A stretch of 49,689 nucleotides of DNA, taken from Actinomycetota bacterium (GTDB lineage Bacteria > Actinomycetota > Humimicrobiia > Humimicrobiales > Humimicrobiaceae). Below the pieces are notes generated by a model, which was given only the letters and a program-made list of their open reading frames with translations, was not told the DNA's origin and made no database searches. Positions 5,755 to 40,477 of the stretch are shown here, in pieces (the stretch's first letter is position 1; every line of letters begins with the position of its first letter). The position numbers were made by a program, and so were the translations under genes. The stretch is taken from assembly GCA_014894375.1 (NCBI GenBank), contig JADBLP010000075.1, positions 33,083 to 82,771 on the forward strand, read 5' to 3'.

Positions 5755-5984
5755 AACTCATCTAAAGTTTTTCCAAATTTACATAAAGCACATTGCCCAC
5801 TCTTTTCATAAAAAAACATTTGATTTTCGTCCTCTTTAGTCCCCCAAATTCTTGAATATGAATATCTTTTATTTTCACTAAAACTACTTTTTCTTATTTC
5901 AGTTATCTTTCCTACGAGTTTACCAATACTACCATCATAGTAAAATAAATCTCCAACCTCAATCTTGCTTTTCATATTCCCCAC
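5736..5984 (-). CDS. EALAWLI-tail small protein, divergent paralog T6
   Basis: 82 aa. Contains KIEVGDLFYY, ends TLDELWVRMI-stop. Confidence 0.55.
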   Translation of the reverse strand: MGNMKSKIEVGDLFYYDGSIGKLVGKITEIRKSSFSENKRYSYSRIWGTKEDENQMFFYEKSGQCALCKFGKTLDELWVRMI

Positions 5985-6609
5985 ACAACGTACTTATTAT
6001 ATCACTTGCAGTTTTATCACCAATATCTGGAATCTCCATGAGTTCTTCCTTGGTCGATTCACAAATTGCTTTAATACTTCCTTTAGAATTTAATAATTTC
6101 TTTGCAGTTTTTACTGAAATTCCTTTCACACCAGTTAAACAGTTCTCTTTAAACTCATTTGGATGTTTTGCTCTACGAATAAGTATTTTAGGACGTTCAC
6201 TCTTTCCATCATCATGAACTTTCTTATCTAATGACACAATAAAATCAATATAATCTTCCATACAAGTAAATTGAAATAACTTAATCTTTGGATAGCTTAT
6301 AGCAAGTGTTGTAAGAAATCCCCTATATGAAGAATGTATCCAAGAACTATGGCAAAAATAGAAGTCTCTCCATAAATTCTCATTCACTATGCAGAGAATC
6401 GGAATATCATAATCCACAATCGCATTTAGTTGTTCCCATATCCTTTTAGAAGTCAAAGACGATATCAAATCATGTCCTTTTCTTTCAATTGCTATCCCAC
6501 CATCAAGAAGCACATCAGCAATTTCAATCCTTTGGATTTCTGGATTTAATCCTTTTTTAATTAATCCATTATATGTAATACCTTCCTTTCTATCATCAAC
6601 TATAATCAT
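5959..6609 (-). CDS. ERCC4-domain structure-specific nuclease (XPF/Hef/Mus81-like) with C-terminal (HhH)2
   Basis: N-terminal IVDDRK, the ERK motif GIAIERKGHDLISSL, and C-terminal HhH repeats GVKGISVKTAKKLL and IPDIGDKTASDI. Confidence 0.75.
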   Translation of the reverse strand: MIIVDDRKEGITYNGLIKKGLNPEIQRIEIADVLLDGGIAIERKGHDLISSLTSKRIWEQLNAIVDYDIPILCIVNENLWRDFYFCHSSWIHSSYRGFLTTLAISYPKIKLFQFTCMEDYIDFIVSLDKKVHDDGKSERPKILIRRAKHPNEFKENCLTGVKGISVKTAKKLLNSKGSIKAICESTKEELMEIPDIGDKTASDIISTLCGEYEKQD

Positions 6610-6881
6610 GAACCTGTTTGTACAACTCCTTCTTGCTGAACCCCTTCTACAAATGGTTTTACTTCTGGTTCTGGTGAAACTGGTTTTCTTAATCGCATTT
6701 CTCTTCCATCTATTCCTTTCACGATAATCTTATCTTCCATTCGTGGTTGCGACTTCATTTCCAAGAAAATCCCAAGAACAAACTGCTTTTCTTGTTTCGT
6801 GTTGCAACGTATCATTATATCCTTTTCACTTCTCACTTTTACTTTTATCATTCTTTTACCTCTTAAATCATCAATAACCAT
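6606..6881 (-). CDS. hypothetical protein
   Basis: 91 aa ORF. ATGA overlap with the ERCC4 gene. Confidence 0.45.
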   Translation of the reverse strand: MVIDDLRGKRMIKVKVRSEKDIMIRCNTKQEKQFVLGIFLEMKSQPRMEDKIIVKGIDGREMRLRKPVSPEPEVKPFVEGVQQEGVVQTGS

Positions 6882-7120
6882 GCATCATTTTCTGATGGCA
6901 CTCTATGATGTACACTAAATAAAATTGGATTACAATGTTTATGGAACCAATCATGTTTATGCCAATTTTCTGCATCATCAGATAATCTTGTAAACCATAT
7001 CATATCTCCATCAATCTTATCAATTCTCAATATACTCTTCTTATCTATACCAAGACCACTACCTCTCCAAAAATTATCAATAAGAATGCATTCACCAACT
7101 TTAAACTCTTTCATATTCAA
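6863..7120 (-). CDS. EALAWLI-tail small protein, divergent paralog T7
   Basis: 85 aa. Starts MNMKEFKVGECILI, ends SENDAWLLMI-stop. Confidence 0.55.
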   Translation of the reverse strand: MNMKEFKVGECILIDNFWRGSGLGIDKKSILRIDKIDGDMIWFTRLSDDAENWHKHDWFHKHCNPILFSVHHRVPSENDAWLLMI

Positions 7121-7383
7121 ATCCTCATTGCCAGAAGTTTCTTTTCATATTCATCTTTAGATTCACAACCTGTTGGTGAAATCTTATAGTGTTTTAACCA
7201 ATTCCTTAAAGTCTCAACAGATATATCTGTCGAAGTATTATCTGGAAATTCCATTTTTAATGGGTTCACAAAATTATACTTTTCTTTTAGATACGTCAAA
7301 AGTATATCAATCTGATAATCTTTTAGAGTTTCAATATGTTCATAAAGAATCTGTTTTGCCATATCATCTATTAATCTATTCAT
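7117..7383 (-). CDS. hypothetical protein
   Basis: 88 aa ORF with ATGA overlaps on both sides. Confidence 0.45.
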   Translation of the reverse strand: MNRLIDDMAKQILYEHIETLKDYQIDILLTYLKEKYNFVNPLKMEFPDNTSTDISVETLRNWLKHYKISPTGCESKDEYEKKLLAMRI

Positions 7384-8093
7384 CTGTGTTCATCAATCCT
7401 TTTTATAATCTGCATTGCTTTATTATACTTTCTATCTAGATAAACTGATGTATCTTTATAAAGTAAATTTAGTAGTTTATAAACATTATGGTTCCCACTG
7501 ATTCTTATAACATATAATATATCTGAATAATTTCTTTTATGCACATCCGCTTTTGTATTCATTCCATGATTAATTACAAAGTCTTTAAACTGTTTGCAAA
7601 TATCATAACTCCCATATAACTCTACACAATTGTTTGCATAAGTTTTTCCATATATTATACAACCATCACCATCAACATACCCCCTAAAATAATCTCTTTC
7701 ATATATCTTATTAATATTAATAAGTTTCTCTTTACCGCTCTTCTGAGGGATTATTCCGCAATGAATTAATCTTTTTGCAATTTTATCGGATGTAATTCTT
7801 AACATATATCCATCATATTGTTTATTATACCCCTTAATTCCACAATTATGCCTTGTTGAATATATCACTTTATCTGTTTCTAAAAATTTTTTATATTTGT
7901 ATATATGATTTAAATCTCTACTTTGTAACTGTAATGTGATTGCTTGCGATTCCCCAAATTTTGGTTTAGAAATATTTCCATCTGCCATTAAAAACCCTAT
8001 CCAATATGCCTTATCTGCATTCATTCTTCCTGAAAATACATTATGATTAACATAATATTTTCTATGGCCATTACTTCTTTTTTCATTTACCAT
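7380..8093 (-). CDS. free-standing LAGLIDADG homing endonuclease
   Basis: Two LAGLIDADG motifs: YWIGFLMADGNI and FRGYVDGDGCI. Confidence 0.75.
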   Translation of the reverse strand: MVNEKRSNGHRKYYVNHNVFSGRMNADKAYWIGFLMADGNISKPKFGESQAITLQLQSRDLNHIYKYKKFLETDKVIYSTRHNCGIKGYNKQYDGYMLRITSDKIAKRLIHCGIIPQKSGKEKLININKIYERDYFRGYVDGDGCIIYGKTYANNCVELYGSYDICKQFKDFVINHGMNTKADVHKRNYSDILYVIRISGNHNVYKLLNLLYKDTSVYLDRKYNKAMQIIKRIDEHR

Positions 8094-8118: not shown

Positions 8119-9201
8119 TCAAAAATCGACAAATCCTTTATCCTTTTGTAATCTGATTGGTATCTTAATTCCAGTGGATTGTTCATCCGGTCTTCTTATC
8201 AGTTGAATACGCCTTGCTTCAATTTTCCATTCTTCATTATCATTCTCCGCACATTTAATTTCTTTTTCTGCCTTAGTTCCATTATGAATCTGTAAGATAT
8301 ATTTGGAGTTATAATAGATTGGATTCCCACCATAAGCGTGCCCTGCATCCTTATAACCAACTGTCATCGGGTTGACACTTGCATGATGAAGAACAATTAC
8401 TGCTATATTATAAAGTTCTGCAACTTGATAGAGTTTACCAAATAGTCTTTCAATAATCTGTGCTCTTGCAGGAAGATTACTTGTTTCACTTCCAACAGAA
8501 TCTTTCACTGGCTTTGTGAGTGAATCTATTATTATTAATGATATGTTCTTTAGTTCCTTATCTGTAAGTGTTTCCTCACAGTGATTAAAGATTACTTTAT
8601 ACTTTCCTCCACCTTTCTCTGATAACTCCAATTTAGGAAGATAACCAAACATCATCATAAGTTTCTGGATAGATTGAATCTGTTTATCATCATAAGTTTT
8701 AATCATTCTAAATTTAGATTCTAATTCTTTTTCACTTATCTCAAATCTCTTACTAAGTTTTCCAAGAATACTTTTTAAATCAACTGGTGTAATTCCCTCT
8801 GTATCTATCAAGAGAGTTTCTTTTCCTGTTAATTTTATGTTATTTACCCCAATTTGATAGCACAACCAAGATTTACCTGTCATCGGTTCACCAAAAAGTG
8901 CAGTAACCAATTTGAATGGAACTCCACCACCAAGAAGGTCATCCACGATTTTACTTCCAGTTGGAATCCTTACCATTTCATCTTTCTTATTCACCATTTT
9001 ACTCCTATCTAACTTATTAACTAAAAAATTTATATGTTTACAAGGAATCTGTTGTTTGAAAACATTCGCTTCACATGAACACCATGCTTGTTCATTATCC
9101 TTCTCCAAATCAATGTTTGTGCAATACTCAATCCCTTTATCTCCTTCTATGATTGCTCGACAAATACCCCAATTATCATATTCAATACTAATTAACCTCA
9201 T
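8119..9201 (-). CDS. SWIM zinc finger fused to a RecA-superfamily (RadA paralog/KaiC-like) ATPase
   Basis: SWIM CxCxnCxH motif WCSCEANVFKQQIPCKH. Walker A GEPMTGKS, Walker B LIIIDSLT, and VIVLHH. Confidence 0.75.
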   Translation of the reverse strand: MRLISIEYDNWGICRAIIEGDKGIEYCTNIDLEKDNEQAWCSCEANVFKQQIPCKHINFLVNKLDRSKMVNKKDEMVRIPTGSKIVDDLLGGGVPFKLVTALFGEPMTGKSWLCYQIGVNNIKLTGKETLLIDTEGITPVDLKSILGKLSKRFEISEKELESKFRMIKTYDDKQIQSIQKLMMMFGYLPKLELSEKGGGKYKVIFNHCEETLTDKELKNISLIIIDSLTKPVKDSVGSETSNLPARAQIIERLFGKLYQVAELYNIAVIVLHHASVNPMTVGYKDAGHAYGGNPIYYNSKYILQIHNGTKAEKEIKCAENDNEEWKIEARRIQLIRRPDEQSTGIKIPIRLQKDKGFVDF

Positions 9202-9428
9202 ATCAAATAAGCAAGTGCCTCTTTGTCGTTTAATTCCTCTATCCTATAAACTCCACCAAATGAATTAAAAATAATATTTTTAGGATAGATATTTCCTCTT
9301 TCAAATGGCCAATTATCACCTTCTTTTCTAAATATGATTTTCCCCTTTTCTTCATTAATCATTTGGACAATATAATATTCACCTGTTTTAATTCTTATAT
9401 CTTTAAAACATTTTCCTTTATATATCAT
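9198..9428 (-). CDS. EALAWLI-tail small protein, paralog T8
   Basis: 76 aa. Ends LNDKEALAYLI-stop. ATGA overlap with the SWIM-RecA gene. Confidence 0.75.
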   Translation of the reverse strand: MIYKGKCFKDIRIKTGEYYIVQMINEEKGKIIFRKEGDNWPFERGNIYPKNIIFNSFGGVYRIEELNDKEALAYLI

Positions 9429-9678
9429 GTATCCACCAATTCTTTATTTGTTCCTCTGTCATTTCTTCTATAATATGGATACCCCCTACATCTGCTAAAG
9501 CTTGGTCTAAAGGATGAATTGTACCCACTCCCCAAATTGGTTTACTATTATTAGAAGTATCTTTAATAAATTCTCCATGTGAATGAATCACTTCAGTAGT
9601 ATTTTCATTAATTGTTTTAACTATGAAATAACTCTCTTTATCCCTTGCAAGTGTATCTTTAAAATATTTCACTTTCAT
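9418..9678 (-). CDS. small protein, possible divergent paralog T9
   Basis: 86 aa. Ends TEEQIKNWWIHDI-stop. 11-nt overlap with T8. Confidence 0.5.
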   Translation of the reverse strand: MKVKYFKDTLARDKESYFIVKTINENTTEVIHSHGEFIKDTSNNSKPIWGVGTIHPLDQALADVGGIHIIEEMTEEQIKNWWIHDI

Positions 9679-9684
9679 ATGCCA

Positions 9685-10626
9685 TCAACCAAGTAACTTT
9701 GTTAAATCCTCTAAGAATCTTTCTGAATTGACCCCTTTTAATTGAAAACCCATAAATCCTGGGTGTCCATTAGCAACCACATATTCCAATGGTTTCAATT
9801 TACCTTGCCAATAAAGTGAAAGTTCTCCACGTAAACTTCCGTGACCATCCTTTTTGTTGATTGCGATTGTAGTTGTCTTTTTAGAATCCTTTTCAAGAAC
9901 TACAGTTGAAACATAACCTGACATGCGATAATTGGACTGGTAAATGATTACATTAAGATTTTCAAACTGATAAGACTTGCAGGTTTTCATTATGTTCCTG
10001 AAATCCTTTTTCACTTCATCCTTTGCTTTTGCTGCTTCTTCATCATAAATGATATCTTCTGGAGTTTCTGCTTCTGAAATAAGTTTTATGGCCTTATCAT
10101 ATGCTTTAACTCTCAGAAGTGCATTAATCGGTGAAGAAACGAGTTTGTATGCTATCCAATGATTAAGTGTATATTCAAAAGTCTTGTCATTCCAAAATGC
10201 ACTTGTTTTGATTCTGTTGAGAAGTTGTGGACATGCTTGAAAGATTTCATAAGGAATTAATTCTGGTTGTCCATCTCCCATAACCCCAACTGCAACTTTC
10301 CACCATTGAGATTTCGGTATGTCCTCATGAAATAATCGCCATGCAATTAGACTTGCAGGTACAGTATCCGAAAATAAGTTATACTTTCGTTTGATTGGAT
10401 AAGTTTCTATCGCATGGTGGTCTAAAATATTAAGTCCTTCTGGAACTTCTTGCCCTTCAATTGGGTGCATATCACACATCCAATCTCCTGTCTTTAATCC
10501 AGTTGTATCTCCAAATTCTCCACTCCACACTTCTAATTTAGGATTCTCAACATGATACGATGTAAGAAAAATGGATGTGATTCCATCAGCATCAAAATGC
10601 CCCCTCAGAATTGTTTCTTTATTCAT
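9685..10626 (-). CDS. DHH-family phosphoesterase (RecJ/Cdc45-GAN-like)
   Basis: Motif I HFDADGITS and motif III NILDHHA. Confidence 0.7.
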   Translation of the reverse strand: MNKETILRGHFDADGITSIFLTSYHVENPKLEVWSGEFGDTTGLKTGDWMCDMHPIEGQEVPEGLNILDHHAIETYPIKRKYNLFSDTVPASLIAWRLFHEDIPKSQWWKVAVGVMGDGQPELIPYEIFQACPQLLNRIKTSAFWNDKTFEYTLNHWIAYKLVSSPINALLRVKAYDKAIKLISEAETPEDIIYDEEAAKAKDEVKKDFRNIMKTCKSYQFENLNVIIYQSNYRMSGYVSTVVLEKDSKKTTTIAINKKDGHGSLRGELSLYWQGKLKPLEYVVANGHPGFMGFQLKGVNSERFLEDLTKLLG

Positions 10627-10632
10627 TTTTTA

Positions 10633-11652
10633 TTAAACCCCTCCTTTACTATTAATTTCTGCTATTTTATCTTCAAGTTCATTAAGTTTATTCTCTAATT
10701 TATTAATTTCAACAAATTTATCAATTTCATCTACGATAGGATATATTACCTTAGTGATTTTGCCAATTTTATTCTTATATTTAATTATCTCACCAATACC
10801 AATCATTTTCTTGTATACAATTTTACCCGTTGTAGCATCATACTTATGTAAAATACTGTTAATATATTTTGCGTATGGTTCATAATTTGTACAATATATT
10901 AAATAATAGTACGGTAAAACTGGTCTTGTAAATATATGACTCCAATCTTTTTCTAACATAAGATGAATATAACATTCAACAATTTCTTCACTATTCATTT
11001 TCTCATCACTATTATATAAGTATTCAACTGCCTTCAATAAAGATTCTGGTAACGAAACATTCAAACTTTTTGTCTCATATCCTAATTTTTTCTTAAGCCC
11101 TAAACTTCTACGTATTCCTTCTAATTGAAATGTTATTATTATATCCAAATTTTCTTGTTTTCTTAAGTATTCTATTGTACTTAATGGTAATTGATTATCA
11201 CTCCATCCACAAGGGTCTAAAATAATTGTTTTTATTTTCTTTGAGATAATTTCTTTACCTATATCTGAAGAAGCATCTGTCATCAATTCATTACAATCAC
11301 CATGATATGTACAAACTTTAGTTGTGAATTCTCTTCCTAATTTATTTCTTAATTTTTCTATATTTCTATTTAAACAATCAAATACTTCTTTATCTTTCTC
11401 TATAAAATATATTGGTGTCTTATTCCATGGTTGTAATAATAATTTAATAGTTGGATTATAATACTCATTTCCCTCTATGTCAGAATTAATCCCTGGTCCT
11501 GCATTTGCATCTATAATTACACCTTTATTTTTAACTATGAAACTTGTTTTTTGTAACAAATCATAAGTTATTATTTCTTTAGTAAAAGAATGTGATTTAA
11601 TTCTAAATCCAATTAATTCACCATCCTTATATATTTTTGTATTACCACTCAT
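10633..11652 (-). CDS. methyltransferase-fold-like protein, possibly TcmP-like partner protein
   Basis: Motif-I-like VIIDANAGPG, then IYFIEKD, HGDCNE and IILDPCGW. This order is as I recall for the three-Cys-motif partner (TcmP) family. Family assignment is from memory only. ATGA overlap with the upstream ParB-rSAM gene. Confidence 0.4.
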   Translation of the reverse strand: MSGNTKIYKDGELIGFRIKSHSFTKEIITYDLLQKTSFIVKNKGVIIDANAGPGINSDIEGNEYYNPTIKLLLQPWNKTPIYFIEKDKEVFDCLNRNIEKLRNKLGREFTTKVCTYHGDCNELMTDASSDIGKEIISKKIKTIILDPCGWSDNQLPLSTIEYLRKQENLDIIITFQLEGIRRSLGLKKKLGYETKSLNVSLPESLLKAVEYLYNSDEKMNSEEIVECYIHLMLEKDWSHIFTRPVLPYYYLIYCTNYEPYAKYINSILHKYDATTGKIVYKKMIGIGEIIKYKNKIGKITKVIYPIVDEIDKFVEINKLENKLNELEDKIAEINSKGGV

Positions 11653-12974
11653 TCTATAATCTCCTGTTCTGGTAAATTTAATAATCTTTTATAACTTTCT
11701 TTCCATCTAATCTTTGGAGTGTCTTTATAAATACTATATAACCATTGAACAAATTCCAACTTTATAGTTTGGAGAATCATATGAAATTCTGGAGTATTAT
11801 GATTTGATTTATCTACTCTTGATTCTATCTCATTCATTTTCCCTAACCAAATAGTTTGTGTAACAAATGGAGAACACTTATAAACTACAATTGGAATTGT
11901 CCCATCTAAAATTGGTTCGCAACTAACAGAAGTTTCAAATCCTTGTTTAAATGCATATTCTAAACTTTCTAATCTCTCTTCAAATGATGGTGTGTTAGGT
12001 TCCCAGAATTTAAGAACTTTATTACTATAACTTCCAATTGTAAATCGGAACATTATTTGTTTCTTATAATCTTTTAATTCTTTGCAAATCTTTTTAACAC
12101 AATCTAAATGTGGTTTAGATGTTATAAGTATCTCATTTCCTACTTTCAATTGTTTCTTTAAATAAGATATGCAATCATCCACATTTTCTGGAGTAATATC
12201 ATGTGTAGTAGGAAACATCCCCCTACCTTCTTCTTTCTTTACTTTATCCAGAAATCCTTTCAATCTTTTTGGTTTAATCCATTCTGCTTCATTCTTTACT
12301 GAATGATATTTATTAATAGCATCATATTTTGCATAGCAATATTTACAATCGTGTCTGCATCCACTATCTATATTAATAGAATAATCTGACCATTCTCTTG
12401 TTCCAGATTTAGGAATTTCTCTCTCAGAAGTTGGTATAGATTTTGATTCATCAAATGATTTCTGTTTAACTTTTCTATATACTTCATCAATAGACATTCC
12501 TTTATTCATCTTATCTATTAATTCTCTATCACCTGATTCAACTACTTGTTTTGCCTTTGAGAGTGAATCTGTTGAGTATCCTGTGATTTTAGAAGCTCTG
12601 GCAATTTTACGTGGACTTCGTTCAGAATCTGAACCAAGTTCTAAATCAGTTCTTTCTCCCTGATAACTCTCTTCATCTTGCCAAACTTTAACTGCTTCTT
12701 CTGGTGTGAATGGTTCTCTCTTTATATTCTCATGCCTTTCATCTGCTTTTATATCATCTGTATCTTTAACTATATAATGAATGCCTTCTGTTAATTCTTT
12801 AATCCCTAATTTTTTAAGTGCTTCTAATCTCCTTTCACCATATTTTAACTGTTTATCTTTGGTTATACCAATCGGATGAAGTAATCCTCTATCTTTAATA
12901 CTTTCTGCAAGAGAATCTATATCACCCAAATCTTTTCTGTATCGTTTTCCAACTTTAATTTCATCTATTTTCAT
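11649..12974 (-). CDS. ParB-like N-terminal domain fused to a radical SAM domain
   Basis: ParB/Srx-like region LAESIKDRGLLHPIGIT..YGERRLEALKKLG. Canonical CX3CX2C cluster SGCRHDCKYCYA, resembling the SplB/COG1533 context. Confidence 0.7.
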   Translation of the reverse strand: MKIDEIKVGKRYRKDLGDIDSLAESIKDRGLLHPIGITKDKQLKYGERRLEALKKLGIKELTEGIHYIVKDTDDIKADERHENIKREPFTPEEAVKVWQDEESYQGERTDLELGSDSERSPRKIARASKITGYSTDSLSKAKQVVESGDRELIDKMNKGMSIDEVYRKVKQKSFDESKSIPTSEREIPKSGTREWSDYSINIDSGCRHDCKYCYAKYDAINKYHSVKNEAEWIKPKRLKGFLDKVKKEEGRGMFPTTHDITPENVDDCISYLKKQLKVGNEILITSKPHLDCVKKICKELKDYKKQIMFRFTIGSYSNKVLKFWEPNTPSFEERLESLEYAFKQGFETSVSCEPILDGTIPIVVYKCSPFVTQTIWLGKMNEIESRVDKSNHNTPEFHMILQTIKLEFVQWLYSIYKDTPKIRWKESYKRLLNLPEQEIIE

Positions 12975-13537: not shown

Positions 13538-13792
13538 TTATTTCTTCTTCTCCTTTAACTTCTCTTGTAAATGCCATAAAATTTCTTCTGCAACTGCAAT
13601 CTTACCAGAAACTACACTAATATAATTTATCCACAAAGAAGGACAAATCTTCTCCAATTCTTCATACGCCTTATTTGAGATTTCATAATTCTCAAACACT
13701 TGACTTGTTTCTTCATCAATTTCTTCACTAATCGTATGTGTATCGTTAAGCAACTTCTGAATCCTTTTGATTTCCTTCTCTATAGATTTCAT
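13538..13792 (-). CDS. coiled-coil protein
   Basis: 84 aa with heptad-like charged composition. Confidence 0.45.
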   Translation of the reverse strand: MKSIEKEIKRIQKLLNDTHTISEEIDEETSQVFENYEISNKAYEELEKICPSLWINYISVVSGKIAVAEEILWHLQEKLKEKKK

Positions 13793-15698: not shown

Positions 15699-15959
15699 CT
15701 AAATCATGTACGCAAATGCTTCTTTCTCTGAAGAAATTTCATCATGCCAACTAACATTTTCAATTTGAGTAAGAAATCCAGAAATCATTCCCACTCGATA
15801 TGTACCCTTACTAATAACTGTACCGTCAAATGCTCTTCCACTATTATTCTTACCAAATCCATATGGTTCTTTATCAACTATAATAAAATCTGGTTTTGAT
15901 TCCTTCCAACTCCTTTTTATGATATTACCTTTCTTATAGATATTCTCATTAAGTTTCAT
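15699..15959 (-). CDS. EALAWLI-tail small protein, paralog T10
   Basis: 86 aa. Ends SSEKEAFAYMI-stop. Confidence 0.7.
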   Translation of the reverse strand: MKLNENIYKKGNIIKRSWKESKPDFIIVDKEPYGFGKNNSGRAFDGTVISKGTYRVGMISGFLTQIENVSWHDEISSEKEAFAYMI

Positions 15960-16187
15960 CTAAATCATTCTCACAAATGCCTCATCTTTGGATATAATCT
16001 TGAAATATGGTGGTTCTATACCATCCCAGAAATAAGTATTCAATCCTTTCTCAAATCCATTTAACCAAAATATCCATATTTTTCTACCTTCTTCAATCTT
16101 ATTAACCTTACCAATATCGCCCTTTCCATTATCTGTTATTAAATCAATAACATAATCACCAATCTTAACTTTCTTCATATCATCCAT
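15960..16187 (-). CDS. EALAWLI-tail small protein, paralog T11
   Basis: 75 aa. Starts MDDMKKVKIGDYV, ends ISKDEAFVRMI-stop. TAGATG junction with T10. Confidence 0.7.
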   Translation of the reverse strand: MDDMKKVKIGDYVIDLITDNGKGDIGKVNKIEEGRKIWIFWLNGFEKGLNTYFWDGIEPPYFKIISKDEAFVRMI

Positions 16188-16417
16188 GCCAACATCTCTT
16201 TTTCAGTTAAGAATTTATGAATTGTGGTTTTAGAATGTCCGAGCCCAAAACTTGTTTCCTCTCCAATATATCCTTCCCTACCAGAATTTGTCTTTAAGAT
16301 TCTATAATACACATCATTTCCTTTTATCTTAATAATTTTACCACAATTCATCCATTTATCATTAGGATTTCTATCTTTCCTCAAAACATATGGTTTATCA
16401 GTTATTGATTTCTTCAT
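16175..16417 (-). CDS. EALAWLI-tail small protein, paralog T12
   Basis: 80 aa. Ends LTEKEMLAWMI-stop. 13-nt overlap with T11. Confidence 0.75.
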   Translation of the reverse strand: MKKSITDKPYVLRKDRNPNDKWMNCGKIIKIKGNDVYYRILKTNSGREGYIGEETSFGLGHSKTTIHKFLTEKEMLAWMI

Positions 16418-16926
16418 CGTTTCATCCTCATTAACTTGTTATAATATTTCAGAATTGAATCAATAGAAACTGGTCTAAAATCCCATACGTCTGTTCCAAC
16501 ATTAATCACTGGAACATCTTGCAAAAAGATATACTTCCATTTGTTATGGATATGACCACAGAGGACTGCATCAAAATTCTCAATATATGTATTTGCATCT
16601 GGTGGTCTGTGTTGCACTAGAAACTTCTTATTTCCAAATTCCATAACTGCTGATTGAATAAGCGTTTTAACTCCAGAATTGTAATCGTGATTCCCTGCGA
16701 TATGAACAATCCTTCCATGAAGTTTCTTTTCCCATTCAAGTGCCTTATCTTGCCCTTTAAACGAGAAATCCCCCACATGATAGACTAAATCATCTGGTTC
16801 AACTTTTTTATTCCATCGTTTGACGATTTCATCATTCATTTCATCTATATCTTTGAATGGTCTATTTGCATAGATGATTATGTTACTATGTGAAAAGTGG
16901 CAATCACTTGAAAAATAAATCCTCAT
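16414..16926 (-). CDS. calcineurin-like metallophosphoesterase
   Basis: Motifs SDCHFSH, VGDFSF, GNHD and GHIH, in canonical order. Confidence 0.75.
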   Translation of the reverse strand: MRIYFSSDCHFSHSNIIIYANRPFKDIDEMNDEIVKRWNKKVEPDDLVYHVGDFSFKGQDKALEWEKKLHGRIVHIAGNHDYNSGVKTLIQSAVMEFGNKKFLVQHRPPDANTYIENFDAVLCGHIHNKWKYIFLQDVPVINVGTDVWDFRPVSIDSILKYYNKLMRMKR

Positions 16927-16937
16927 ATTAACCTCAC

Positions 16938-17174
16938 CTAAATCATTGATAAAAATGCCTCATCTTCAGTTACTACCTCAATTTCTCTTTCTGCAAATGG
17001 AAGATTATTAAATCCCTTGCGAACTGGAATAAAAATATTCACATCATATGGATAAGTTTGTGCGTATGAACTAACTCCTATAATCTTACCAACCTTATTT
17101 CTGTATCTCTCCATATTTTTATCTGGATTTAAAATCCTCACATAATCTCCTGATTTATACTTTAAATTAGCCAT
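16938..17174 (-). CDS. EALAWLI-tail small protein, paralog T13
   Basis: 78 aa. Starts MANLKYKSGDYVRIL, ends VTEDEAFLSMI-stop. Confidence 0.7.
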   Translation of the reverse strand: MANLKYKSGDYVRILNPDKNMERYRNKVGKIIGVSSYAQTYPYDVNIFIPVRKGFNNLPFAEREIEVVTEDEAFLSMI

Positions 17175-18142: not shown

Positions 18143-18372
18143 GCGAGTGCTTCCTTGTCATTTAATATCGACAAATATGGAATACATCCTTCTTGATACC
18201 CATCCTCAGTATAACTTCCCTCAATCAATGTATTATAAAGTAATCTTACCCTAATAACATTTGCTTTTACAGATATTACCTGTCCTATCTCAATCCCATG
18301 CCCGATTTCACCACTAACATATTTCAATACCATACCAAGTTTGACTTGTTTAAATGATTTAAGTTTCTTCAT
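18130..18372 (-). CDS. EALAWLI-tail small protein, paralog T18
   Basis: 80 aa. Ends LNDKEALAWLI-stop. ATGA overlap with the VWA gene. Confidence 0.8.
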   Translation of the reverse strand: MKKLKSFKQVKLGMVLKYVSGEIGHGIEIGQVISVKANVIRVRLLYNTLIEGSYTEDGYQEGCIPYLSILNDKEALAWLI

Positions 18373-20966
18373 TTCACCACAACCACCTTGCCAAATGGAA
18401 ACTTATCATTCTCAAGTTTGTTTTCCCCTGCAACAATCCATAAAACATCAAGTCTTGCGTCTGATTTCTTCGGAAATTCTGTGTAACCATCAGTAAAACA
18501 TATAATAAATTTGGCATTTGGTCTTTCTTTTTTAAGCCACTTGAATACTGGGAGATGACTAGTCCCCCCTCCACCTTTCAATTTCACCTTGTTTCGTATA
18601 TCCCCAACGGTTGCTTGTTTGAATGTATGAACCCCATGAATTGCACAATCACAATCAATAATCGTCAAGTCCACATTCTTGAAACTGCGTGTGATTCCTA
18701 CTAATTCACCTAAGAACATTTTTAACTCCACATCTGAAATACTATTATGAACTAATATTCCATTAGCAAAATAATTATGATTATCTTTAACTTCTAAATC
18801 ATATACATCTATCTCTTCTGACAATTCAATTATTTTAGAACTTTTAACCTTCTCTAATACTATATAATCATTATAATCAATATAAATAGAGTTTTTTATA
18901 TTTTTAGTTTTTCTTAAATATTTCTCTATCTTGATTTTTTTGTCATTCCTTGTTACACCAACCATTTCATAGAATTTCTTAATGTTTTCTCTACCAGTTA
19001 CTTTTAACTTATAAATCAGTGTTTCTTTGATTATATTATCTCCTATTTTCCTTTCGGGTGTAATAGAACTTTCAATATAGCAATATATTCCTAATCTATT
19101 TAATAACATTTGCAATTGATATATTAGCTTTTTACTTGTGTTACTAAATGTTAAATCATGTTCTCCAATATGTCCTTCTGCATCAAAAAATCCTCTTATA
19201 AAACCACAAATAACATCATCATCTGCAACCGTTATTAAATTTGGAATATTCCTATACCTACTTCTTACTACAATATCTTCAAAATTTGTTTTTAGATAAT
19301 TAACAAATTCCTTTGAATAAATTGATAACCGTTGTCTTCTACAATGATTAGTTATCTTTGAATTAATATTTAATTTTCTAATTAATATTTGATAATACTG
19401 TAGATTTTCAATATTTTTGTCTGTTATTTGAGCGTAAAAAGAATTTTTACAAATACTCAGATTCCCATCACCACAAATCATTCCTAATACTTCTGCAAAA
19501 TCTCTATTGATATATGATGGTATAACTGGATGTCCTATTTTTGGCTTAATTCCTTTTAGAATCCTATAAACCTTCATACTACCTATTCCAGTGAGTTTAT
19601 GTATCTCATAACCACTATGTTTCCCAGATAATTCTATAACTTTTGAAACTTCATTTGGTGTTGCTAAATATTTATTATTATAACGTATCTCTGGCAATAT
19701 TACTTTATTCTGTGAAAAATCTATCTTTTTTGTGGTTATTAACCAATCATTTTTTCTTATTTCATCTGCTCTTTTTTCAATAATTTTTCCTTTCTTTAAC
19801 CAACTATTTTTTCTATCCCCCCATTCTCTGGCAAAGTTATTTACATATATAAATATCTTATGATTTGGTGTTACTTTTATCTCTTTTCCACTTTTTGTCT
19901 TTATTGTGATTATCTTCTTTGCTTTATATACAAATTTCTTATTAACCATATCCAATTTATTAACAGAAAAATCAGAATTTATCAAAGAAATTGGATTTAT
20001 TATATCTCTTATTTCTTTTATTCCTTCATCCGTGTATATTAATGTATCCCCAACAAAGCACCCACTTGTATCTATCGAAGCAATTATCTCAATAGATTCC
20101 TTTTCTGTAGAAGGAAGATAAATTCCAGTTGAAATGGTCCTTTTAGATGGTCTACTCCAAGTATAATCCATTGGAACCATAGATGAGATATATTTGAAAA
20201 GATATGTTCTCCAATTCACTTTAGGAGCAATCAAATCACCGATTATTCTTTCCATCCCTACTGGTACACTCCCACGATTCTTTGCATGGGCACAAGCATC
20301 AAGTAGAACCTTTCTCCAATGATTCTTTAAATCATTTTCATCTCGAAATGGAGATTTACCTTCACCTTCTTTACCATCTCCATCTTTGCCTTCCCCCTCA
20401 CCTTCTTTTGGATGGATATGTTCATCAAATCTCCCTTTTTCTCCATTTGCAATTGCCTGTTGAGTTGCTTCTTTTCCTTTCTTGGAGAAATACTTGTGAA
20501 GTTCATCATAGATTTCTCCTGAAGATTTAGTATCTATCTTTTCAATCTCATAACCTTGGAAGTTAAACTTATTATCCTTTGGAACCAATGCCCCTTGCTT
20601 ATCAGGAAGTTTCATGTTATCCTTAATTAAGATGTTATTCACTACAATATCACTTGCGATGTTTGCTAATTCTGGATACTGTTTCAACTCCTGTGCAAGT
20701 GTCATATGTTCCAAAACAACGTGCATAATTTCGTGACAAAGAACTCCATAAATTTCATCATCTGTAAGTGATTCAATAAACTTAGGATTCCAATAGCAAT
20801 CTCCATATGCAGAAACACCCATTGTCGGACACTCCTTTCTTTCTTGAAATTTCAAGTGTGAAACAAGAAAAGAAAAGAATGGTCTGCCTTCTGGTGGGTC
20901 TGCTCCAATCCGAATCTTTGCCTTGATAATCCTTTCTTCTGGTGTTAGTTTCAATTCATCTGTCAT
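18369..20966 (-). CDS. putative metallopeptidase (HExxH) / VWA-like protein (DUF2201/COG3864-like), interrupted by an intein
   Basis: N-terminal region has HEIMHVVLEH. The extein junction restores the MIDAS motif IDTSG|SISD. The C-terminal part has IIDCDC..GGGGTSHLPVF..ICFTDGY, typical of the MoxR-partner VWA family. Confidence 0.8.
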   Translation of the reverse strand: MTDELKLTPEERIIKAKIRIGADPPEGRPFFSFLVSHLKFQERKECPTMGVSAYGDCYWNPKFIESLTDDEIYGVLCHEIMHVVLEHMTLAQELKQYPELANIASDIVVNNILIKDNMKLPDKQGALVPKDNKFNFQGYEIEKIDTKSSGEIYDELHKYFSKKGKEATQQAIANGEKGRFDEHIHPKEGEGEGKDGDGKEGEGKSPFRDENDLKNHWRKVLLDACAHAKNRGSVPVGMERIIGDLIAPKVNWRTYLFKYISSMVPMDYTWSRPSKRTISTGIYLPSTEKESIEIIASIDTSGCFVGDTLIYTDEGIKEIRDIINPISLINSDFSVNKLDMVNKKFVYKAKKIITIKTKSGKEIKVTPNHKIFIYVNNFAREWGDRKNSWLKKGKIIEKRADEIRKNDWLITTKKIDFSQNKVILPEIRYNNKYLATPNEVSKVIELSGKHSGYEIHKLTGIGSMKVYRILKGIKPKIGHPVIPSYINRDFAEVLGMICGDGNLSICKNSFYAQITDKNIENLQYYQILIRKLNINSKITNHCRRQRLSIYSKEFVNYLKTNFEDIVVRSRYRNIPNLITVADDDVICGFIRGFFDAEGHIGEHDLTFSNTSKKLIYQLQMLLNRLGIYCYIESSITPERKIGDNIIKETLIYKLKVTGRENIKKFYEMVGVTRNDKKIKIEKYLRKTKNIKNSIYIDYNDYIVLEKVKSSKIIELSEEIDVYDLEVKDNHNYFANGILVHNSISDVELKMFLGELVGITRSFKNVDLTIIDCDCAIHGVHTFKQATVGDIRNKVKLKGGGGTSHLPVFKWLKKERPNAKFIICFTDGYTEFPKKSDARLDVLWIVAGENKLENDKFPFGKVVVVK
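18744..20060 (-). mobile_element. intein (439 aa) with LAGLIDADG homing endonuclease, inserted in the VWA MIDAS motif
   Basis: Starts with Cys (CFVGDTLIY; TGC at 20060..20058). Ends ..GILVHN, followed by Ser (AAT at 18746..18744). Internal LAGLIDADG motifs LGMICGDGNL and IRGFFDAEGHI. Confidence 0.8.
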
Positions 20967-21264: not shown

Positions 21265-21507
21265 CTAAATCATGTAAAGAAAAGCTCTCTCCATTCCATT
21301 TGTAGTATCATCTATTATTTCTAAATTATTATATAACTGCATATATTCTCTCCCTTTAAAACACCCATTTATCCAATTTACATCTACTGCATCACTACCT
21401 TTATATTTTACATTAACTTTTGTAACTACTCCTATTGCCCCTTTATCTGCCATACCAACATCTTTCACTATATTCCCAACTTTAATCTTCCTTTTCACTT
21501 TTCCCAC
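21265..21507 (-). CDS. EALAWLI-tail small protein, divergent paralog T20
   Basis: 80 aa. Contains KIKVGNIVKDV, ends GMERAFLYMI-stop. The start overlaps the MoxR 3' end. Confidence 0.6.
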   Translation of the reverse strand: MGKVKRKIKVGNIVKDVGMADKGAIGVVTKVNVKYKGSDAVDVNWINGCFKGREYMQLYNNLEIIDDTTNGMERAFLYMI

Positions 21508-23758
21508 AATCCGTTATGTTAAAGAAGTATTTCTTATATTTCTTGCTGAAGTTGTCAAAGTGCTTACTTGCCAGAACATCTTTAATAAACCCATCTTGAT
21601 TTCTTCCTCTAATAATCCGTAACATGCAGATTGAAAAGTCTGGTGTAAGATTATCAGCAATCTCCAAAACCTTATCCATAGGAACTTCTGGTTTAGCATT
21701 CTTTCTAGTTTTCACTGGTTCTCTTTCAGAAAAGTACCACTCTGCTACAAGAGTTATAAGTGAATACTTCAAATCAATTTCAACAATTTCCTTTGCTTTT
21801 GTAGGGTCTGAAAGAATATCTGTTAGATTCACTTTACGTTTCAATCTCAAGAAACTAGCAAACTCCTTTGCAGGATATTCCCCAACTGCTGAAGCGGTAT
21901 ATCTTTCGATAGATTGAATATCTTCTTTTCCTTTAATAAGAGGACTACAGAGTTTTCCCCAAGAACGTGGAGTTGGAAATGCCATTTCATCTGTTTCTAC
22001 ATTTTCTTTTGGATTCAAATGAGTTGGATGTTGCATGAGAAAAGTTACGATTCTAAAGTCAATCCCATTTGCGAGTGCCCATTCACCCCAATCATTTTCA
22101 CATTTATCTGTTATCCCAGGTGCTTCAAGTGTAACATGTGTAAAACGATTCCTAAGAGGTCTGGAAAGTTCATAGACATTTGCTCTATCTTCTAAACGAT
22201 TCCCTGCTGCAACGCACATAACACCATCTGCAAGTGAAACTTCCCCACATGCCCTATCATTAATCACTTGATAAGAAGATGATTGTACACTTTGCGGTGC
22301 AAGATTTATTTCATCAAAGAAAATAATGCCTTCTGCTCCTTTTAAAGAGGCTAATTGTACCCAAATTGGAACCATCCATTCAACTACTTTTACATCTCCA
22401 ACTTTGTCTCCACCATTCACTTTTCTCAAGTCTGGAATTCCTTTTATATCGGATGGGTCACACATAGAAAGGCGTTCATCTTTCAGGAAGAAATACCTCT
22501 GTGGACTTTTCAGAACATCTTGTTTTTCATCCATAGAAAGTTTAGACCATTCTACATATATTTTCCCACGCTTTTGTGCAATATCTTTCGCTTTCTTTCT
22601 AACCGTATCGCTATTGTGAGTAACTGTAAAATCACCTAATAAAAATAAACCATCTTTATCTAGAGTAAACCCAAAGTATTCACCTATCCCTTTCTCTTTG
22701 ACATTGACCCCTGTTACTAGTACATCCTTTTTTTGTTTTCTTTTGTGAGCTTTTCTTCTTGTAATTTTTGTTGGTATTCTTATAATATCCCCAGAAATTG
22801 TAATGTCAAAAACTTCAGTTTCGTAATTTCTAGATTTTAATCTTGCAATTCCTGTTTTCTTATATGCTGCAAATCCAAGTGAACGTGCTAAAAATAAAAC
22901 ATCATCTGCTAACTTTTCATTAACAGATGTATAAATAAAACAATTGCATTGTAAATGCCCATCAGTATCAATTAATCCAGCTAGTAATTGTAATCTCACC
23001 TCTTGTGAATTAATTTTATATTCTTGTGGAATATGTTTATTTAAAATTAAATTCAAACTTCTCAATTTTTCTAGGACTGTATTTAGCGGTCTATTAGTTT
23101 TCTTTCCCATTACACCAGTTGTAATTCTGTATGAATTAGTTTTAGAATCTGTTTTATTGACATCAACATGAACTTTAAGATTTTCACTTTCAGCGAATTG
23201 TGTTAAAAATTCAACTATCTCTTTATCTTGTGTTGTAATACTAGGTGTTCGTGAATTACCGTCTCCTAACCATATCCCCAAAAAGTATGGGTCTAATATA
23301 ACTTTCTGGAATGGAAAATCTACACCTACACGATAAAGTTTGTGTTGGTGTTTAAAATGATTACTCTTCTTAATATAATCTTTAACTGAAATATTAAGAA
23401 TTTCTCCCCCTTTCTTTATGCTATGATATCTATTCCAATGATAACTCCTTTTCAATGACAAAATATGATGTTCGTTAGTTGAAAATGATTCGCCTTTTAC
23501 CGGCATAACTTCATATAACTTATCTTTACCAGAAGTTATAGTTAAGACCTTACGTGGAGTTGAATCTACCCCCATTAATTCATCCCCTACATTAATATCT
23601 TCAACTAATTTTATGATTCCATTATACATTAACACTGTCGTCCCTTTTTCAAGGCACTTCCCGATTCCTGGTGCTCCCCAGATATACATCGGAATTTTCC
23701 CATTATTGTAATGCTCTTCAATCATTTCCTCAAGTTCTTTGTGTCGTACAGATAACAT
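21482..23758 (-). CDS. MoxR-like AAA+ ATPase (AAA_5), interrupted by an intein
   Basis: Walker A is split as GAPGIGK|[intein]|SDT. Walker B IIFFDEINLA, sensor AAGN, and LRNRF. Confidence 0.8.
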   Translation of the reverse strand: MLSVRHKELEEMIEEHYNNGKIPMYIWGAPGIGKCLEKGTTVLMYNGIIKLVEDINVGDELMGVDSTPRKVLTITSGKDKLYEVMPVKGESFSTNEHHILSLKRSYHWNRYHSIKKGGEILNISVKDYIKKSNHFKHQHKLYRVGVDFPFQKVILDPYFLGIWLGDGNSRTPSITTQDKEIVEFLTQFAESENLKVHVDVNKTDSKTNSYRITTGVMGKKTNRPLNTVLEKLRSLNLILNKHIPQEYKINSQEVRLQLLAGLIDTDGHLQCNCFIYTSVNEKLADDVLFLARSLGFAAYKKTGIARLKSRNYETEVFDITISGDIIRIPTKITRRKAHKRKQKKDVLVTGVNVKEKGIGEYFGFTLDKDGLFLLGDFTVTHNSDTVRKKAKDIAQKRGKIYVEWSKLSMDEKQDVLKSPQRYFFLKDERLSMCDPSDIKGIPDLRKVNGGDKVGDVKVVEWMVPIWVQLASLKGAEGIIFFDEINLAPQSVQSSSYQVINDRACGEVSLADGVMCVAAGNRLEDRANVYELSRPLRNRFTHVTLEAPGITDKCENDWGEWALANGIDFRIVTFLMQHPTHLNPKENVETDEMAFPTPRSWGKLCSPLIKGKEDIQSIERYTASAVGEYPAKEFASFLRLKRKVNLTDILSDPTKAKEIVEIDLKYSLITLVAEWYFSEREPVKTRKNAKPEVPMDKVLEIADNLTPDFSICMLRIIRGRNQDGFIKDVLASKHFDNFSKKYKKYFFNITDCGKSEKED
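22613..23656 (-). mobile_element. intein (348 aa) with LAGLIDADG homing endonuclease, inserted in the MoxR P-loop
   Basis: Starts CLEKGTTVLMYNG (TGC at 23656..23654). Ends ..FTVTHN, followed by Ser (AAT at 22615..22613). LAGLIDADG motifs LGIWLGDGNS and LLAGLIDTDGHL. Confidence 0.8.
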
Positions 23759-38986: not shown

Positions 38987-40477
38987 ATGGTTAGAACATT
39001 AGATAGTAATCAGGCAAATAAAATATTATATCAGTTGGATTGTGTGAGGTTCATAGAGGATATAATTTCTCCTTCATGTACTCCACCAATGCAACTAAAA
39101 GAATTCCACAAAGAGTGGATTGACTTAATTAATAACAATAGGTTTGTTTCATTACTTGCTCCTCGTTCACATGGGAAGACAACTTTACTTGGGGCATATA
39201 TAATTTGGAAGATAGTAACTAATCCAAAGATTAGAATTCTAGTAGTTACTATTAATCAGGAAATGGCAGATAGAATCATGTCATTCATTCAAAGGCATAT
39301 AGAAGGCAATACTGACCTTATAAATATATTTGGTGTACCATCTAGTACTGGTAATCTAAGTTTACGTGGTTATAGTGATTGGACAAGGAGTAAATTACGG
39401 GTATTGGGTGCTGGTAATCAGAAAGACCCAACATTGAGTGTCATTGGTATCACTGCTTCAATGGTTGGGGGGCATTATGATATGATTATATTAGATGATA
39501 TTATGGATGCGGGTAATTCTAGAACAGAACATGGAAGGAATGAAGTATTTAGTTTATATAATAGTACAATGATGCCAATGCTAGAACCTCCAAATGGAAA
39601 ACTTGTTAGTATTGCAACTAAATGGCATGATAATGATATAAGTTGGTATTTACAAAGGAAACCAGATTTTGCTTCAAAGATATATAGAGCAATTATAAAA
39701 TATCCAGAGAAGAATAATGGTGTTGCAGAAGTACTTTGGGAAGATAAATTTCCATATGAAGAACTAATAAAGATAAAGGAAAGAGATGGTAGTCTTTCAT
39801 TTGAGATGCAATATCAGAATAATATAGTTTCATTAGCAGATTCACCAATTAAAGGAGATTGGGTAGATATGGCAATTGCAGATTATAAAGTTCCAGAACC
39901 AGAATATGAAGTTTATATGGGAGTTGATTTTGCATCTAAAGGTGAGGAATCAGATTATTTCGTAATAGTTATAGTTGCAGTTAAAGATGCTAAAGTATAT
40001 GTTATTGATGCATTAAGAACAAAAGCATCTTTATTCAGGCAATTTGAACTTATTAGGTCTTATGATACCAAGTGGCAACCAATACGAATAGGAATTGAAC
40101 AAGCAGCACAACAAAAGATTATTGTTGACCAATTGATTGAATCAACGACTCTTCCAATTATTCCAATTAAATCTTCGATTGTTAATGATAGGATGTCGAG
40201 AATCCAAAGACTCTCAGTTTTATTTGAGACAGGAAGAATATTTATGAATTCAGAAAATGAAGCAGTAAGGATATTATCAGATGAAGCAAAAATATTTCCA
40301 CATGGTGCTAATGACGACCTTTTGGACGGGTTATCATTTGCTATTCAAGCATCACAATATATGGAAGAAGATACACATATTGATTGGAATTTGATTCCAG
40401 ATATGATTTCAACACGAAAGAATGAAGAAACTGTTAATTCTGTAAAAAGAAACAATTATGAATTCTATAAGATATAG
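38987..40477 (+). CDS. terL: terminase large subunit
   Basis: Walker A LLAPRSHGKTT and Walker B MIILDDIMD. The C-terminal RNase H-like nuclease region has GVDFASKG..DYFVIVIV and ANDDLLDG. Confidence 0.85.
   Translation: MVRTLDSNQANKILYQLDCVRFIEDIISPSCTPPMQLKEFHKEWIDLINNNRFVSLLAPRSHGKTTLLGAYIIWKIVTNPKIRILVVTINQEMADRIMSFIQRHIEGNTDLINIFGVPSSTGNLSLRGYSDWTRSKLRVLGAGNQKDPTLSVIGITASMVGGHYDMIILDDIMDAGNSRTEHGRNEVFSLYNSTMMPMLEPPNGKLVSIATKWHDNDISWYLQRKPDFASKIYRAIIKYPEKNNGVAEVLWEDKFPYEELIKIKERDGSLSFEMQYQNNIVSLADSPIKGDWVDMAIADYKVPEPEYEVYMGVDFASKGEESDYFVIVIVAVKDAKVYVIDALRTKASLFRQFELIRSYDTKWQPIRIGIEQAAQQKIIVDQLIESTTLPIIPIKSSIVNDRMSRIQRLSVLFETGRIFMNSENEAVRILSDEAKIFPHGANDDLLDGLSFAIQASQYMEEDTHIDWNLIPDMISTRKNEETVNSVKRNNYEFYKI

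Follow-up and report, generated by a model that had tools for sequence, protein, structure and literature searches.

What is a ParB domain doing at the front of a radical S-adenosylmethionine (SAM) enzyme, and why is this enzyme followed by a member of the TcmP family? These questions are raised by two overlapping open reading frames (ORFs) in a stretch of 49,689 nt from an Actinomycetota assembly (GCA_014894375.1, contig JADBLP010000075.1, positions 33,083 to 82,771), which was analyzed as a whole and is called the window here. The first of them, ORF1, encodes a protein of 441 aa in which a ParB N-terminal domain and a helix-turn-helix (HTH) region precede a radical SAM domain, and the second, ORF2, encodes a TcmP-like protein of 339 aa; both lie on the minus strand (Table 1), and the DNA around them comes from a tailed phage that has not been cultured. 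A preliminary description of the two genes had placed their ends and quoted their motifs exactly, all of these motifs being present in the translations, and had taken the pair for a DNA-targeting module. We find that the ParB-radical SAM protein and its TcmP-like partner form a real, conserved and rare variant of a cassette that has a name and is functionally uncharacterized. As to what the module does, we tentatively favor the reading that a DNA-tethered radical SAM enzyme and a SAM-binding partner covalently modify DNA, the likeliest target being the phage's own genome.

The N-terminal half of ORF1 was compared with ParB proteins at the level of motif, profile and fold. Its translation contains LAESIKDRGLLHPIGIT (aa 22-38) and GERRLEALKKLG (aa 46-57), and two boxes, GERR (aa 46-49) and ENIKRE (aa 82-87), align in phmmer comparisons with the same boxes of Spo0J (4umk) and ParB (7bnk and 7bnr), as G46-E-R-R49...A52 and E82-N-I-K-R86-E. 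Residues 1-177 match phrog_12047, annotated as a "ParB-like partition nuclease" (E 3.6e-25), and weaker matches were obtained to TIGR00180 (42.2 bits, below the cutoff of 58.45; E 7e-11) and to PF02195 (23.3 bits, slightly below the cutoff of 26.3). The TIGR00180 and phrog_12047 matches reach aa 127-177, a part of the protein that is modeled as helices (119-173) by AlphaFold (AF2; model built on 38 homologs, overall predicted local distance difference test score, pLDDT, of 85.6) and that is conserved in the relatives P0002-P0005 described below. With Foldseek, the top matches of the ParB fold were 7bnk, 7bnr, 7o0n, 6sdk and 1vz0, the closest structure to the N-terminal half being 7bnk (E 7.7e-7). 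As in the CTP-dependent ParB, Spo0J and Noc clamps, an HTH comes after the GERRxxA and ENxxRE boxes of ORF1, and CDP- or CTPgammaS-bound members of that group (7bnk, 7bnr and 6sdk) are its best structural matches. Unlike these clamps, it lacks the ParB C-terminal dimerization domain, for which there is no space because the radical SAM domain begins at approximately aa 185 and occupies that place; nor was a parS-like site found nearby. Across the five known ParB-radical SAM fusions G46 and R49 are invariant, with GHRR or GHNR replacing GERR in other members of the clade. Where the preliminary description had left the choice between a clamp and a nuclease, the ParB part is likelier to be of the CTP-binding or clamp type and less likely to be a nuclease, since the best structures are of CTP- or CDP-bound ParB.

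The C-terminal half belongs to the radical SAM superfamily by motif, profile and fold, and is predicted to cleave SAM. The cluster motif SGCRHDCKYCYA supplies Cys206, Cys210 and Cys213 in a CX3CX2C arrangement (CRHDCKYC, aa 206-213), and all three cysteines are invariant among 38 homologs. The PF04055 Radical_SAM profile matches aa 201-349 with 47.1 bits against a cutoff of 29.5; this alignment covers model positions 2-144 of 166, so that it is near full-length and extends past the cysteine loop by which the domain had originally been recognized, with no sign that the other radical SAM motifs are lacking. The domain is modeled with a pLDDT above 90 over aa 190-430 as a partial TIM barrel, and Foldseek relates it to spore photoproduct lyase (SPL), SuiB, SkfB, DesII, MoaA and viperin, the closest structure being SPL (4fhc, E 1.1e-5). 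Its family is marked by the motifs GTREW, MFPTTHDITP, SKPH, FRFTIGS, TSVSCEP and RWKES and by approximately 45 invariant alignment columns, and the nearest named families in NCBIfam (SPL, PA0069, Rv2578c and "mobile pair protein B") all score far under their cutoffs. In line with the preliminary description, the fusion of a ParB domain to a radical SAM enzyme is therefore real, as judged from phrog_12047, TIGR00180, PF04055 and the fold matches, and the literature search found no description of such a fusion.

SPL (SplB; TIGR04070, PF20903) is an enzyme that acts directly on DNA, and it is both the nearest solved structure and the nearest named family of the domain. The 2 have the motifs GCxxxCxYCY, FRF(S/T)I.S...EP......RL and T.DI in common, and the Tyr96/Tyr98 relay of SPL is kept as CKYCY, with Y212 invariant and Y214 nearly so. 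On the other hand, the hydrogen donor Cys140 of the Geobacillus enzyme is replaced by Thr256 in an invariant PTTHDI motif (the two sequences align weakly overall, E 0.008, with a clear local match of TSDI to THDI), and the domain of the window is approximately 100 residues shorter, partnered by TcmP and fused to ParB. Membership in the SPL family was rejected on the same replacement and on the family scores (TIGR04070, 28.8 bits against 400; PF20903, 25.2 against 27). Because Cys140 aligns with threonine, we regard the domain as an SPL-like scaffold rather than an SPL. The Ophion defense system, which also uses a radical SAM protein, combines it with PHP and phosphoribosyltransferase components and is unrelated.

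ORF2 matches the TcmP profile TIGR04474 with 66.5 bits against a cutoff of 53, over positions 27-262 of 263. It contains IIDANAGPG (aa 46-54, motif I), FIEKD (aa 83-87), HGDC and the motif IV-like ILDPCGW (aa 144-150), and keeps all invariant residues of TcmP: K25, D48-x3-G52-x-G54, D146-P147 and R182. ORF2 had no Pfam domain match. Canonical TcmP members carry a C-terminal winged HTH (PF22560), which is common in the family yet lies outside the TIGR model; no PF22560 match was found in ORF2, the C-terminus of which is modeled as long helices at low confidence. Overall, the AF2 model of ORF2 has a pLDDT of 69.6, with a core above 80. A Foldseek search of the PDB gave 224 matches at E<=1e-3 with SAM methyltransferases at the top (47 of the best 50 matches were methyltransferases); none of the PDB methyltransferases was specifically close, and the matches in BFVD were likewise generic folds. 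By profile and modeled fold, ORF2 is a divergent TcmP with a SAM-methyltransferase Rossmann fold (class I), which is predicted to bind SAM and may transfer methyl groups. This agrees with the methyltransferase-fold, TcmP-like partner proposed at the outset. The protein is highly divergent: a word-seeded search of 5.8 billion proteins found a single relative (P0122, 45% identity), HMMER, run exhaustively over 1.8 billion representatives, gave only 25, all weak, at E<=1e-3, and ORF2 itself, being too divergent, had 0 matches in the 160 loci described below by tblastn and phmmer. TcmP-like neighbors in these loci were therefore identified with hidden Markov models built from the neighbor proteins and with NCBIfam.

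The two genes are joined at the junction AGGAGATTATAGAATGAGTGG, read directly from the sequence, which has the layout AGGAG-ATTATAGA-ATGA. The TGA stop of ORF1 and the ATG of ORF2 have two bases in common, forming the 4-nt gene overlap ATGA that had been noticed earlier, and an AGGAG Shine-Dalgarno sequence lies within the 3' end of ORF1, 8 nt before the start of ORF2. ORF1 and ORF2 are a translationally coupled two-gene module, situated in a long, unbroken array of minus-strand genes.

Is this arrangement more than an accident of one contig? The ParB-radical SAM fusion is rare: four relatives were found, P0002 (67% identity), P0003, P0005 and P0004, and scans of viral, genome and metagenome loci yielded no further full-length fusions. 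These four independent relatives rule out an assembly or frameshift artifact as the origin of the fusion. Both the fusion and the order of radical SAM gene followed by TcmP gene recur on independent contigs at 41-67% protein identity, which excludes a chance arrangement. A TcmP-like gene lies directly 3' of every fusion with readable downstream DNA, the window apart in each of three relatives, in keeping with the proposal that the two genes are a module. At locus L164, the downstream gene scores 57.8 bits as TcmP-like and follows after a 5-nt gap; at L162, a partial copy (39.4 bits, 52% identity to ORF2) follows with the junction TAAATG. At L165, a C-terminal radical SAM fragment that is 88% identical to that of the window overlaps the TcmP-like P0122 through the same ATGA. 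The contig of P0004, which is not among the readable ones, has a gene of 267 aa beginning 3 nt downstream.

Beyond the fusions, the radical SAM domain has a large family of free-standing relatives of approximately 260 aa, with 2,158 matches at approximately 50% identity, mostly in phages and in metagenome-assembled genomes (MAGs) of anaerobes. Scans of loci gave 98 confirmed matches in IMG/VR and 206 among the species representatives of GTDB, and the GTDB carriers are chiefly MAGs of anaerobes: Ignavibacteria, Bacteroidales, Verrucomicrobiota, Planctomycetota, Syntrophales and DPANN archaea. The gene that most often directly adjoins the free-standing one is TcmP (18/160 loci, with gaps of 14-110 nt), and the adjacency was replicated in 10/80 metagenome loci, amounting to approximately 12% over 240 homologs; homologs are in this way linked to the partner gene in a wider neighborhood survey as well. 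A gene of the ParB superfamily was found within 5 kb in 29/160 loci, approximately half of these within 1 kb of the radical SAM gene and mostly upstream of it; hhalign comparisons and PDB profile matches to Noc and Spo0J confirmed that these are ParB genes. Eight viral loci (L009, L015, L018, L019, L022, L033, L046 and L052) hold a tightly packed series of separate genes, in which a short ParB N-domain protein is followed by a protein of approximately 210 aa, called cluster 20, and this directly by the radical SAM gene. Cluster-20 proteins always lie between these two and carry the motifs AKLxLRRY, VLDCCQGxG, VDIDTYGxPW and TVFLT. Profile searches of Pfam, PADLOC and the PDB gave no match for them, and in the comparison with the TcmP profile the lysine, D..GxG and D.D.YG fall in register (hhalign 61%, E 8e-5). 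Since three TcmP motifs align in this way, cluster 20 probably represents TcmP in a minimal form. The type of partner tracks the radical SAM subclades in a neighbor-joining tree, in which the fusion clade adjoins loci with a separate upstream ParB. The conservation of the pair, and that of the triad of ParB, TcmP-like protein and radical SAM enzyme, are computational observations, as are the domain identities, the motifs and the coupling.

Other recurrent neighbors of the radical SAM gene are Dam, Dcm and N6/N4 methylases, DnaB and recombinases. No third conserved gene was found around the TcmP-radical SAM pairs, the flanks of which are mixed (TIR, AAA_15/21, GmrSD, PD-(D/E)XK, prophage and housekeeping genes). 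Within the free-standing family, P0056 carries an intein of approximately 340 aa with a LAGLIDADG domain (PF14528, PF14890), inserted exactly between the CxxxC and xxC parts of the cluster motif, and P0111 has a C-terminal extension of approximately 170 aa, another fusion variant of the family.

The nearest named system is the canonical cassette in which TcmP (approximately 380 aa, with the winged HTH) lies directly upstream of a 243-aa DUF5131 protein (PF07505), bearing out the statement in the preliminary description that TcmP accompanies three-Cys-motif enzymes. These 2 proteins are the A and B components of the PADLOC candidate defense systems PDC-M30 and PDC-M41, with scores of 372 and 383 bits. 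The cassette of the window resembles the canonical one in that both are mobile and both are tight two-gene cassettes of a TcmP Rossmann protein and a protein of approximately 250 aa with the cluster motif EW..N..GC..C..CYA at its N-terminus; in addition, the radical SAM family of the window is remotely homologous to DUF5131 (hhalign 87%, E 4e-6, in the N-terminal 82 columns). The 2 differ in the cluster motif (CX3CX2C in the window versus CX6CX2C in DUF5131), in the gene order, which is reversed in the clade of the window, and in the placement of accessory domains, with ORF2 lacking the winged HTH and the radical SAM protein carrying the ParB and HTH fusion. ORF1 was not assigned to DUF5131 itself, as it has no PF07505 match at E<=0.1 and no match to PDC-M30B or PDC-M41B. 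Nor was the pair assigned to PDC-M30 or PDC-M41, as ORF2 reaches just 23.9 bits on PDC-M41A (E 7e-6) and ORF1 matches no B component. The literature search found no functional study of TcmP, DUF5131 or PDC-M30/M41.

A second comparison is with phage and plasmid genes in which a ParB domain is fused to a DNA methyltransferase or shares an operon with one. As is proposed for the window, a ParB DNA-binding or loading module is coupled there to SAM-dependent DNA modification on mobile elements, and in the loci surveyed here ParB genes, DNA methylases and the radical SAM gene co-occur. In the window, by contrast, ParB is fused to a radical SAM enzyme, and the methyltransferase-fold protein is separate and a non-canonical TcmP.

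How might such a module work? Because a ParB module, TcmP and an SPL-like radical SAM enzyme recur together, either as three genes or as a ParB-radical SAM fusion with TcmP, we argue for a DNA-directed two-enzyme reaction; DNA as its substrate, the gating by CTP, the chemistry and the biological purpose are what we infer beyond the arrangement itself. Where ParB is fused to the radical SAM enzyme, TcmP is without a winged HTH, as ORF2 shows, and DNA binding in this pair would be placed on the radical SAM partner. The ParB and HTH part would bind DNA, possibly in a CTP-gated manner like the ParB clamps, and keep the [4Fe-4S]/SAM domain on the duplex. The radical SAM domain would cleave SAM reductively to a 5'-deoxyadenosyl radical, which may abstract hydrogen from a base or a sugar of the DNA, while TcmP could provide a second SAM-dependent step (methyl transfer) or serve in base recognition and flipping. 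As a result DNA would be covalently modified, the phage's own genome being the likeliest target, and host nucleases may be evaded in this way. A DNA target, as claimed in the preliminary description, is plausible given the ParB N-domain and HTH, the SPL-like scaffold and the repeated association of free-standing relatives with ParB and DNA methyltransferases; the protective purpose proposed with it has a rival in an offensive or exclusion role.

Several points weigh against this reading. The ParB scores of ORF1 lie under the Pfam and TIGR cutoffs, the structural model of ORF2 is of moderate confidence, and neither parS-like sites nor other conspicuous repeats turned up around the genes in the window. 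A transfer of methyl to a base is less than certain, because motif IV of TcmP is DPxG rather than the DPPY of amino-methyltransferases. Approximately 85% of the free-standing homologs are without a recognizable adjacent TcmP-like gene, so that the radical SAM enzyme may act alone and TcmP may be an accessory. No published function was found for any homolog or for the canonical TcmP/DUF5131 pair, and the listing of the canonical cassette as candidate defense would suit a DNA-damaging effector equally well.

It is this last point, the same cassette type being listed as candidate anti-phage defense, that makes an offensive or exclusion role a live rival. The pair would then be a variant of PDC-M30/M41 carried by the phage for defense, superinfection exclusion or attack on host DNA, in which the ParB-tethered radical SAM enzyme would damage foreign or unmarked DNA and TcmP would discriminate or self-mark, much as in restriction-modification. 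We consider this possible, on the unlikely side. The scores of the canonical proteins on PDC-M30A/B and PDC-M41A/B (372-383 bits), the PDC-M41A match of ORF2, the remote homology to DUF5131 and the occurrence of TcmP-radical SAM pairs in MAGs as two-gene cassettes amid TIR, AAA_15/21, GmrSD, PD-(D/E)XK and prophage genes are consistent with it. Against it, the PDC systems are candidates only, with no validation found in the literature, no PADLOC B component is matched by ORF1, and there is no extra sensor- or toxin-like domain. Moreover, the phage radical SAM genes sit in replication and DNA-metabolism modules with ParB and methylases, the usual setting of self-modification genes. A broader version, which we hold to be doubtful, takes both this pair and the TcmP/three-Cys cassettes for a radical-based system similar to restriction-modification, in which TcmP would mark DNA with the help of SAM and an SPL-like radical SAM enzyme, loaded and moved along DNA by a ParB domain acting as a CTP switch, would install an irreversible lesion or hypermodification.

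The remaining explanations are less likely than both DNA modification and a DNA-damaging role in defense or offense. DNA repair, improbable in our view, would have the SPL-like lyase reverse a thymine-dimer-type or other radical-repairable lesion while the ParB and HTH part scans DNA and TcmP serves as an accessory. SPL is the top match of the radical SAM domain in sequence and fold, its radical-relay CxYCY tyrosines are conserved, the neighboring genes of the window encode a RadA/SWIM recombinase and a DHH-like (RecJ-type) protein, and the Joint Genome Institute label of the family is "DNA repair photolyase". However, the SPL scores fall far under the family cutoffs, threonine stands in for Cys140, SPL repair has no role for a methyltransferase-fold partner or for ParB, and the hosts are largely anaerobes of sediment, sludge and gut, where the ultraviolet spore photoproduct is irrelevant.

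Much the same low probability attaches to chemistry on free nucleotides or small molecules, such as the making of a viperin-like chain terminator or the destruction of a signaling nucleotide, with ParB as a module that binds or hydrolyzes nucleoside triphosphates instead of binding DNA. ParB/Srx domains can be NTPases (PMC10853773), which speaks for such a module, and weak pVip matches occur at the cluster region, with viperin among the distant structural matches. These pVip matches are, however, confined to approximately 30 residues at the CX3CX2C loop, at 14-16 bits; an HTH follows the ParB N-domain, canonical TcmP has its winged HTH, and no conserved kinase or nucleotide-salvage partner was found among the neighbors. 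Modification of tRNA or rRNA, a task of many other pairs of radical SAM enzyme and Rossmann methyltransferase by which the phage would retune translation, is very improbable: class I methyltransferase folds and radical SAM enzymes predominate in RNA modification and the Foldseek matches of ORF2 include Hen1, cap methyltransferases and TYW4, but the ParB N-domain with HTH and the winged HTH are DNA-binding modules, ORF1 scores far under the cutoffs of RNA-modifying radical SAM families, and the genes lie among DNA methylases, ParB and replication genes in a window devoid of tRNA genes.

In NCBI annotation the TcmP/three-Cys cassettes have a name, and they count as candidate defense, with no function described. 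For them, the phage version is a "Rosetta stone", as its ParB and HTH fusion, together with the gene trios of ParB, TcmP-like protein and radical SAM enzyme, point to a duplex DNA substrate, and ORF1-ORF2 is a compact two-gene construct suited to experiments. A new DNA modification or radical lesion, if that is what the module makes, would be new chemistry in the phage-host arms race and would give a function to more than 2,000 uncharacterized radical SAM proteins, which occur frequently in viruses that infect anaerobic bacteria and possibly archaea. A ParB nucleotide-switch domain would also, for the first time, deliver an enzyme that is neither a partition nor a nucleoid-occlusion factor. 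Should the doubtful radical restriction-modification-like reading hold, the enzyme would be the first clamp-tethered radical SAM protein processive on duplex DNA, and with it a new class of modification or restriction.

Table 1. Positions in the window of the module, its parts and further features discussed in the text.
Feature	Position (nt)	Strand	Basis
ORF1 (441 aa): ParB N-domain and HTH fused to SPL-like radical SAM	11649..12974	-	ORF call, Pfam/NCBIfam/PHROG, AF2, Foldseek
ParB/Srx N-terminal domain, aa 1-100	12675..12974	-	phmmer, phrog_12047
GERR box, aa 46-49	12828..12839	-	
HTH-type helical DNA-binding region of ParB part, aa ~110-173	12456..12647	-	AF2 helices, reach of TIGR00180/phrog_12047
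Radical SAM domain, aa 185-441	11652..12422	-	PF04055, homolog family
CRHDCKYC cluster motif, aa 206-213	12336..12359	-	
Coupling junction: AGGAG Shine-Dalgarno (11661-11665) and ATGA overlap (11649-11652)	11649..11665	-	Direct sequence reading
ORF2 (339 aa): divergent TcmP, class I SAM-methyltransferase fold	10633..11652	-	ORF call, TIGR04474, AF2, Foldseek
ORF2 motif I, aa 46-54	11491..11517	-	
ORF2 motif IV-like, aa 144-150	11203..11223	-	
DHH-like gene	9685-10626		PHROG, motifs
SWIM-RadA gene	8119-9201	-	PF08423
Calcineurin-like metallophosphatase	16414-16926		Pfam
758-aa protein with two ATPase-type halves	21482-23758	-	PHROG
Large terminase	38987-40477		
Homing-type endonucleases	7380-8093, 5959-6609, 18369-20966 (N-terminus), 42074-42796		
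Small-ORF family	6863-7120, 9198-9428, 9418-9678, 15699-15959, 15960-16187, 16175-16417, 16938-17174	-	

The preliminary description had suggested that neighboring DHH and MazG genes may belong to the same context, and neither suggestion was supported. The DHH assignment itself rests on one weak PHROG match (E 5.7e-4) and visible DHH-type motifs, and at L165 the pair is followed by an ERCC4/helix-hairpin-helix nuclease rather than by a DHH gene. For MazG, no Pfam match was obtained in the six ORFs scanned between 12987 and 17718 (the 84-aa ORF at 13538-13792 was unscanned), one ORF of that region being the calcineurin-like metallophosphatase.

The window, the sequence of which is also present in NCBI assembly GCA_014894515.1, has a G+C content of approximately 30% and encodes a large terminase, a portal protein, a tail fiber, several HNH and LAGLIDADG endonucleases, a DNA polymerase exonuclease subunit and a SWIM-RadA recombinase. 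Its terminase is at most approximately 26% identical to any cultured-phage terminase, and among cultured-phage records ORF1 had no full-length match, just separate ParB or radical SAM matches. The SWIM-RadA gene, the product of which combines a SWIM zinc finger (aa 26-57) with a recombinase ATPase of the RadA/Rad51 type (PF08423, E 2.8e-17), likewise had no match among these records. Together with the ERCC4/XPF-type nuclease beside the L165 pair, it gives a hint that the host may be archaeal or unusual in some other way. A scan of the window found promoter- and terminator-like sites to be no commoner than in shuffled sequence.

At approximately position 32000, the GC skew changes sign from approximately -0.3 to +0.2 and coding moves from the minus to the plus strand; this is a divergent junction between the early/replication and structural modules, and possibly an origin or promoter hub. 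Homing-type endonucleases are unusually dense, with one LAGLIDADG and three HNH enzymes in the window, and one of the HNH genes follows the portal gene directly, within the structural module. The 758-aa protein matches terminase-large-subunit or DnaC-like ATPase PHROGs with its N-terminal half and a separate ATPase family, phrog_1297, with its C-terminal half; its gene lies in the replication-side array, far from the real terminase. Finally, at least 7 related ORFs of approximately 75-88 aa are scattered over the early region, with further copies at another locus (L001, positions 1-1854). In alignment they share 16-27% pairwise identity and an N-terminal K.G.Y.I motif, they end in ...EA(F/L)xxMI, and they mostly overlap the start of the following gene.

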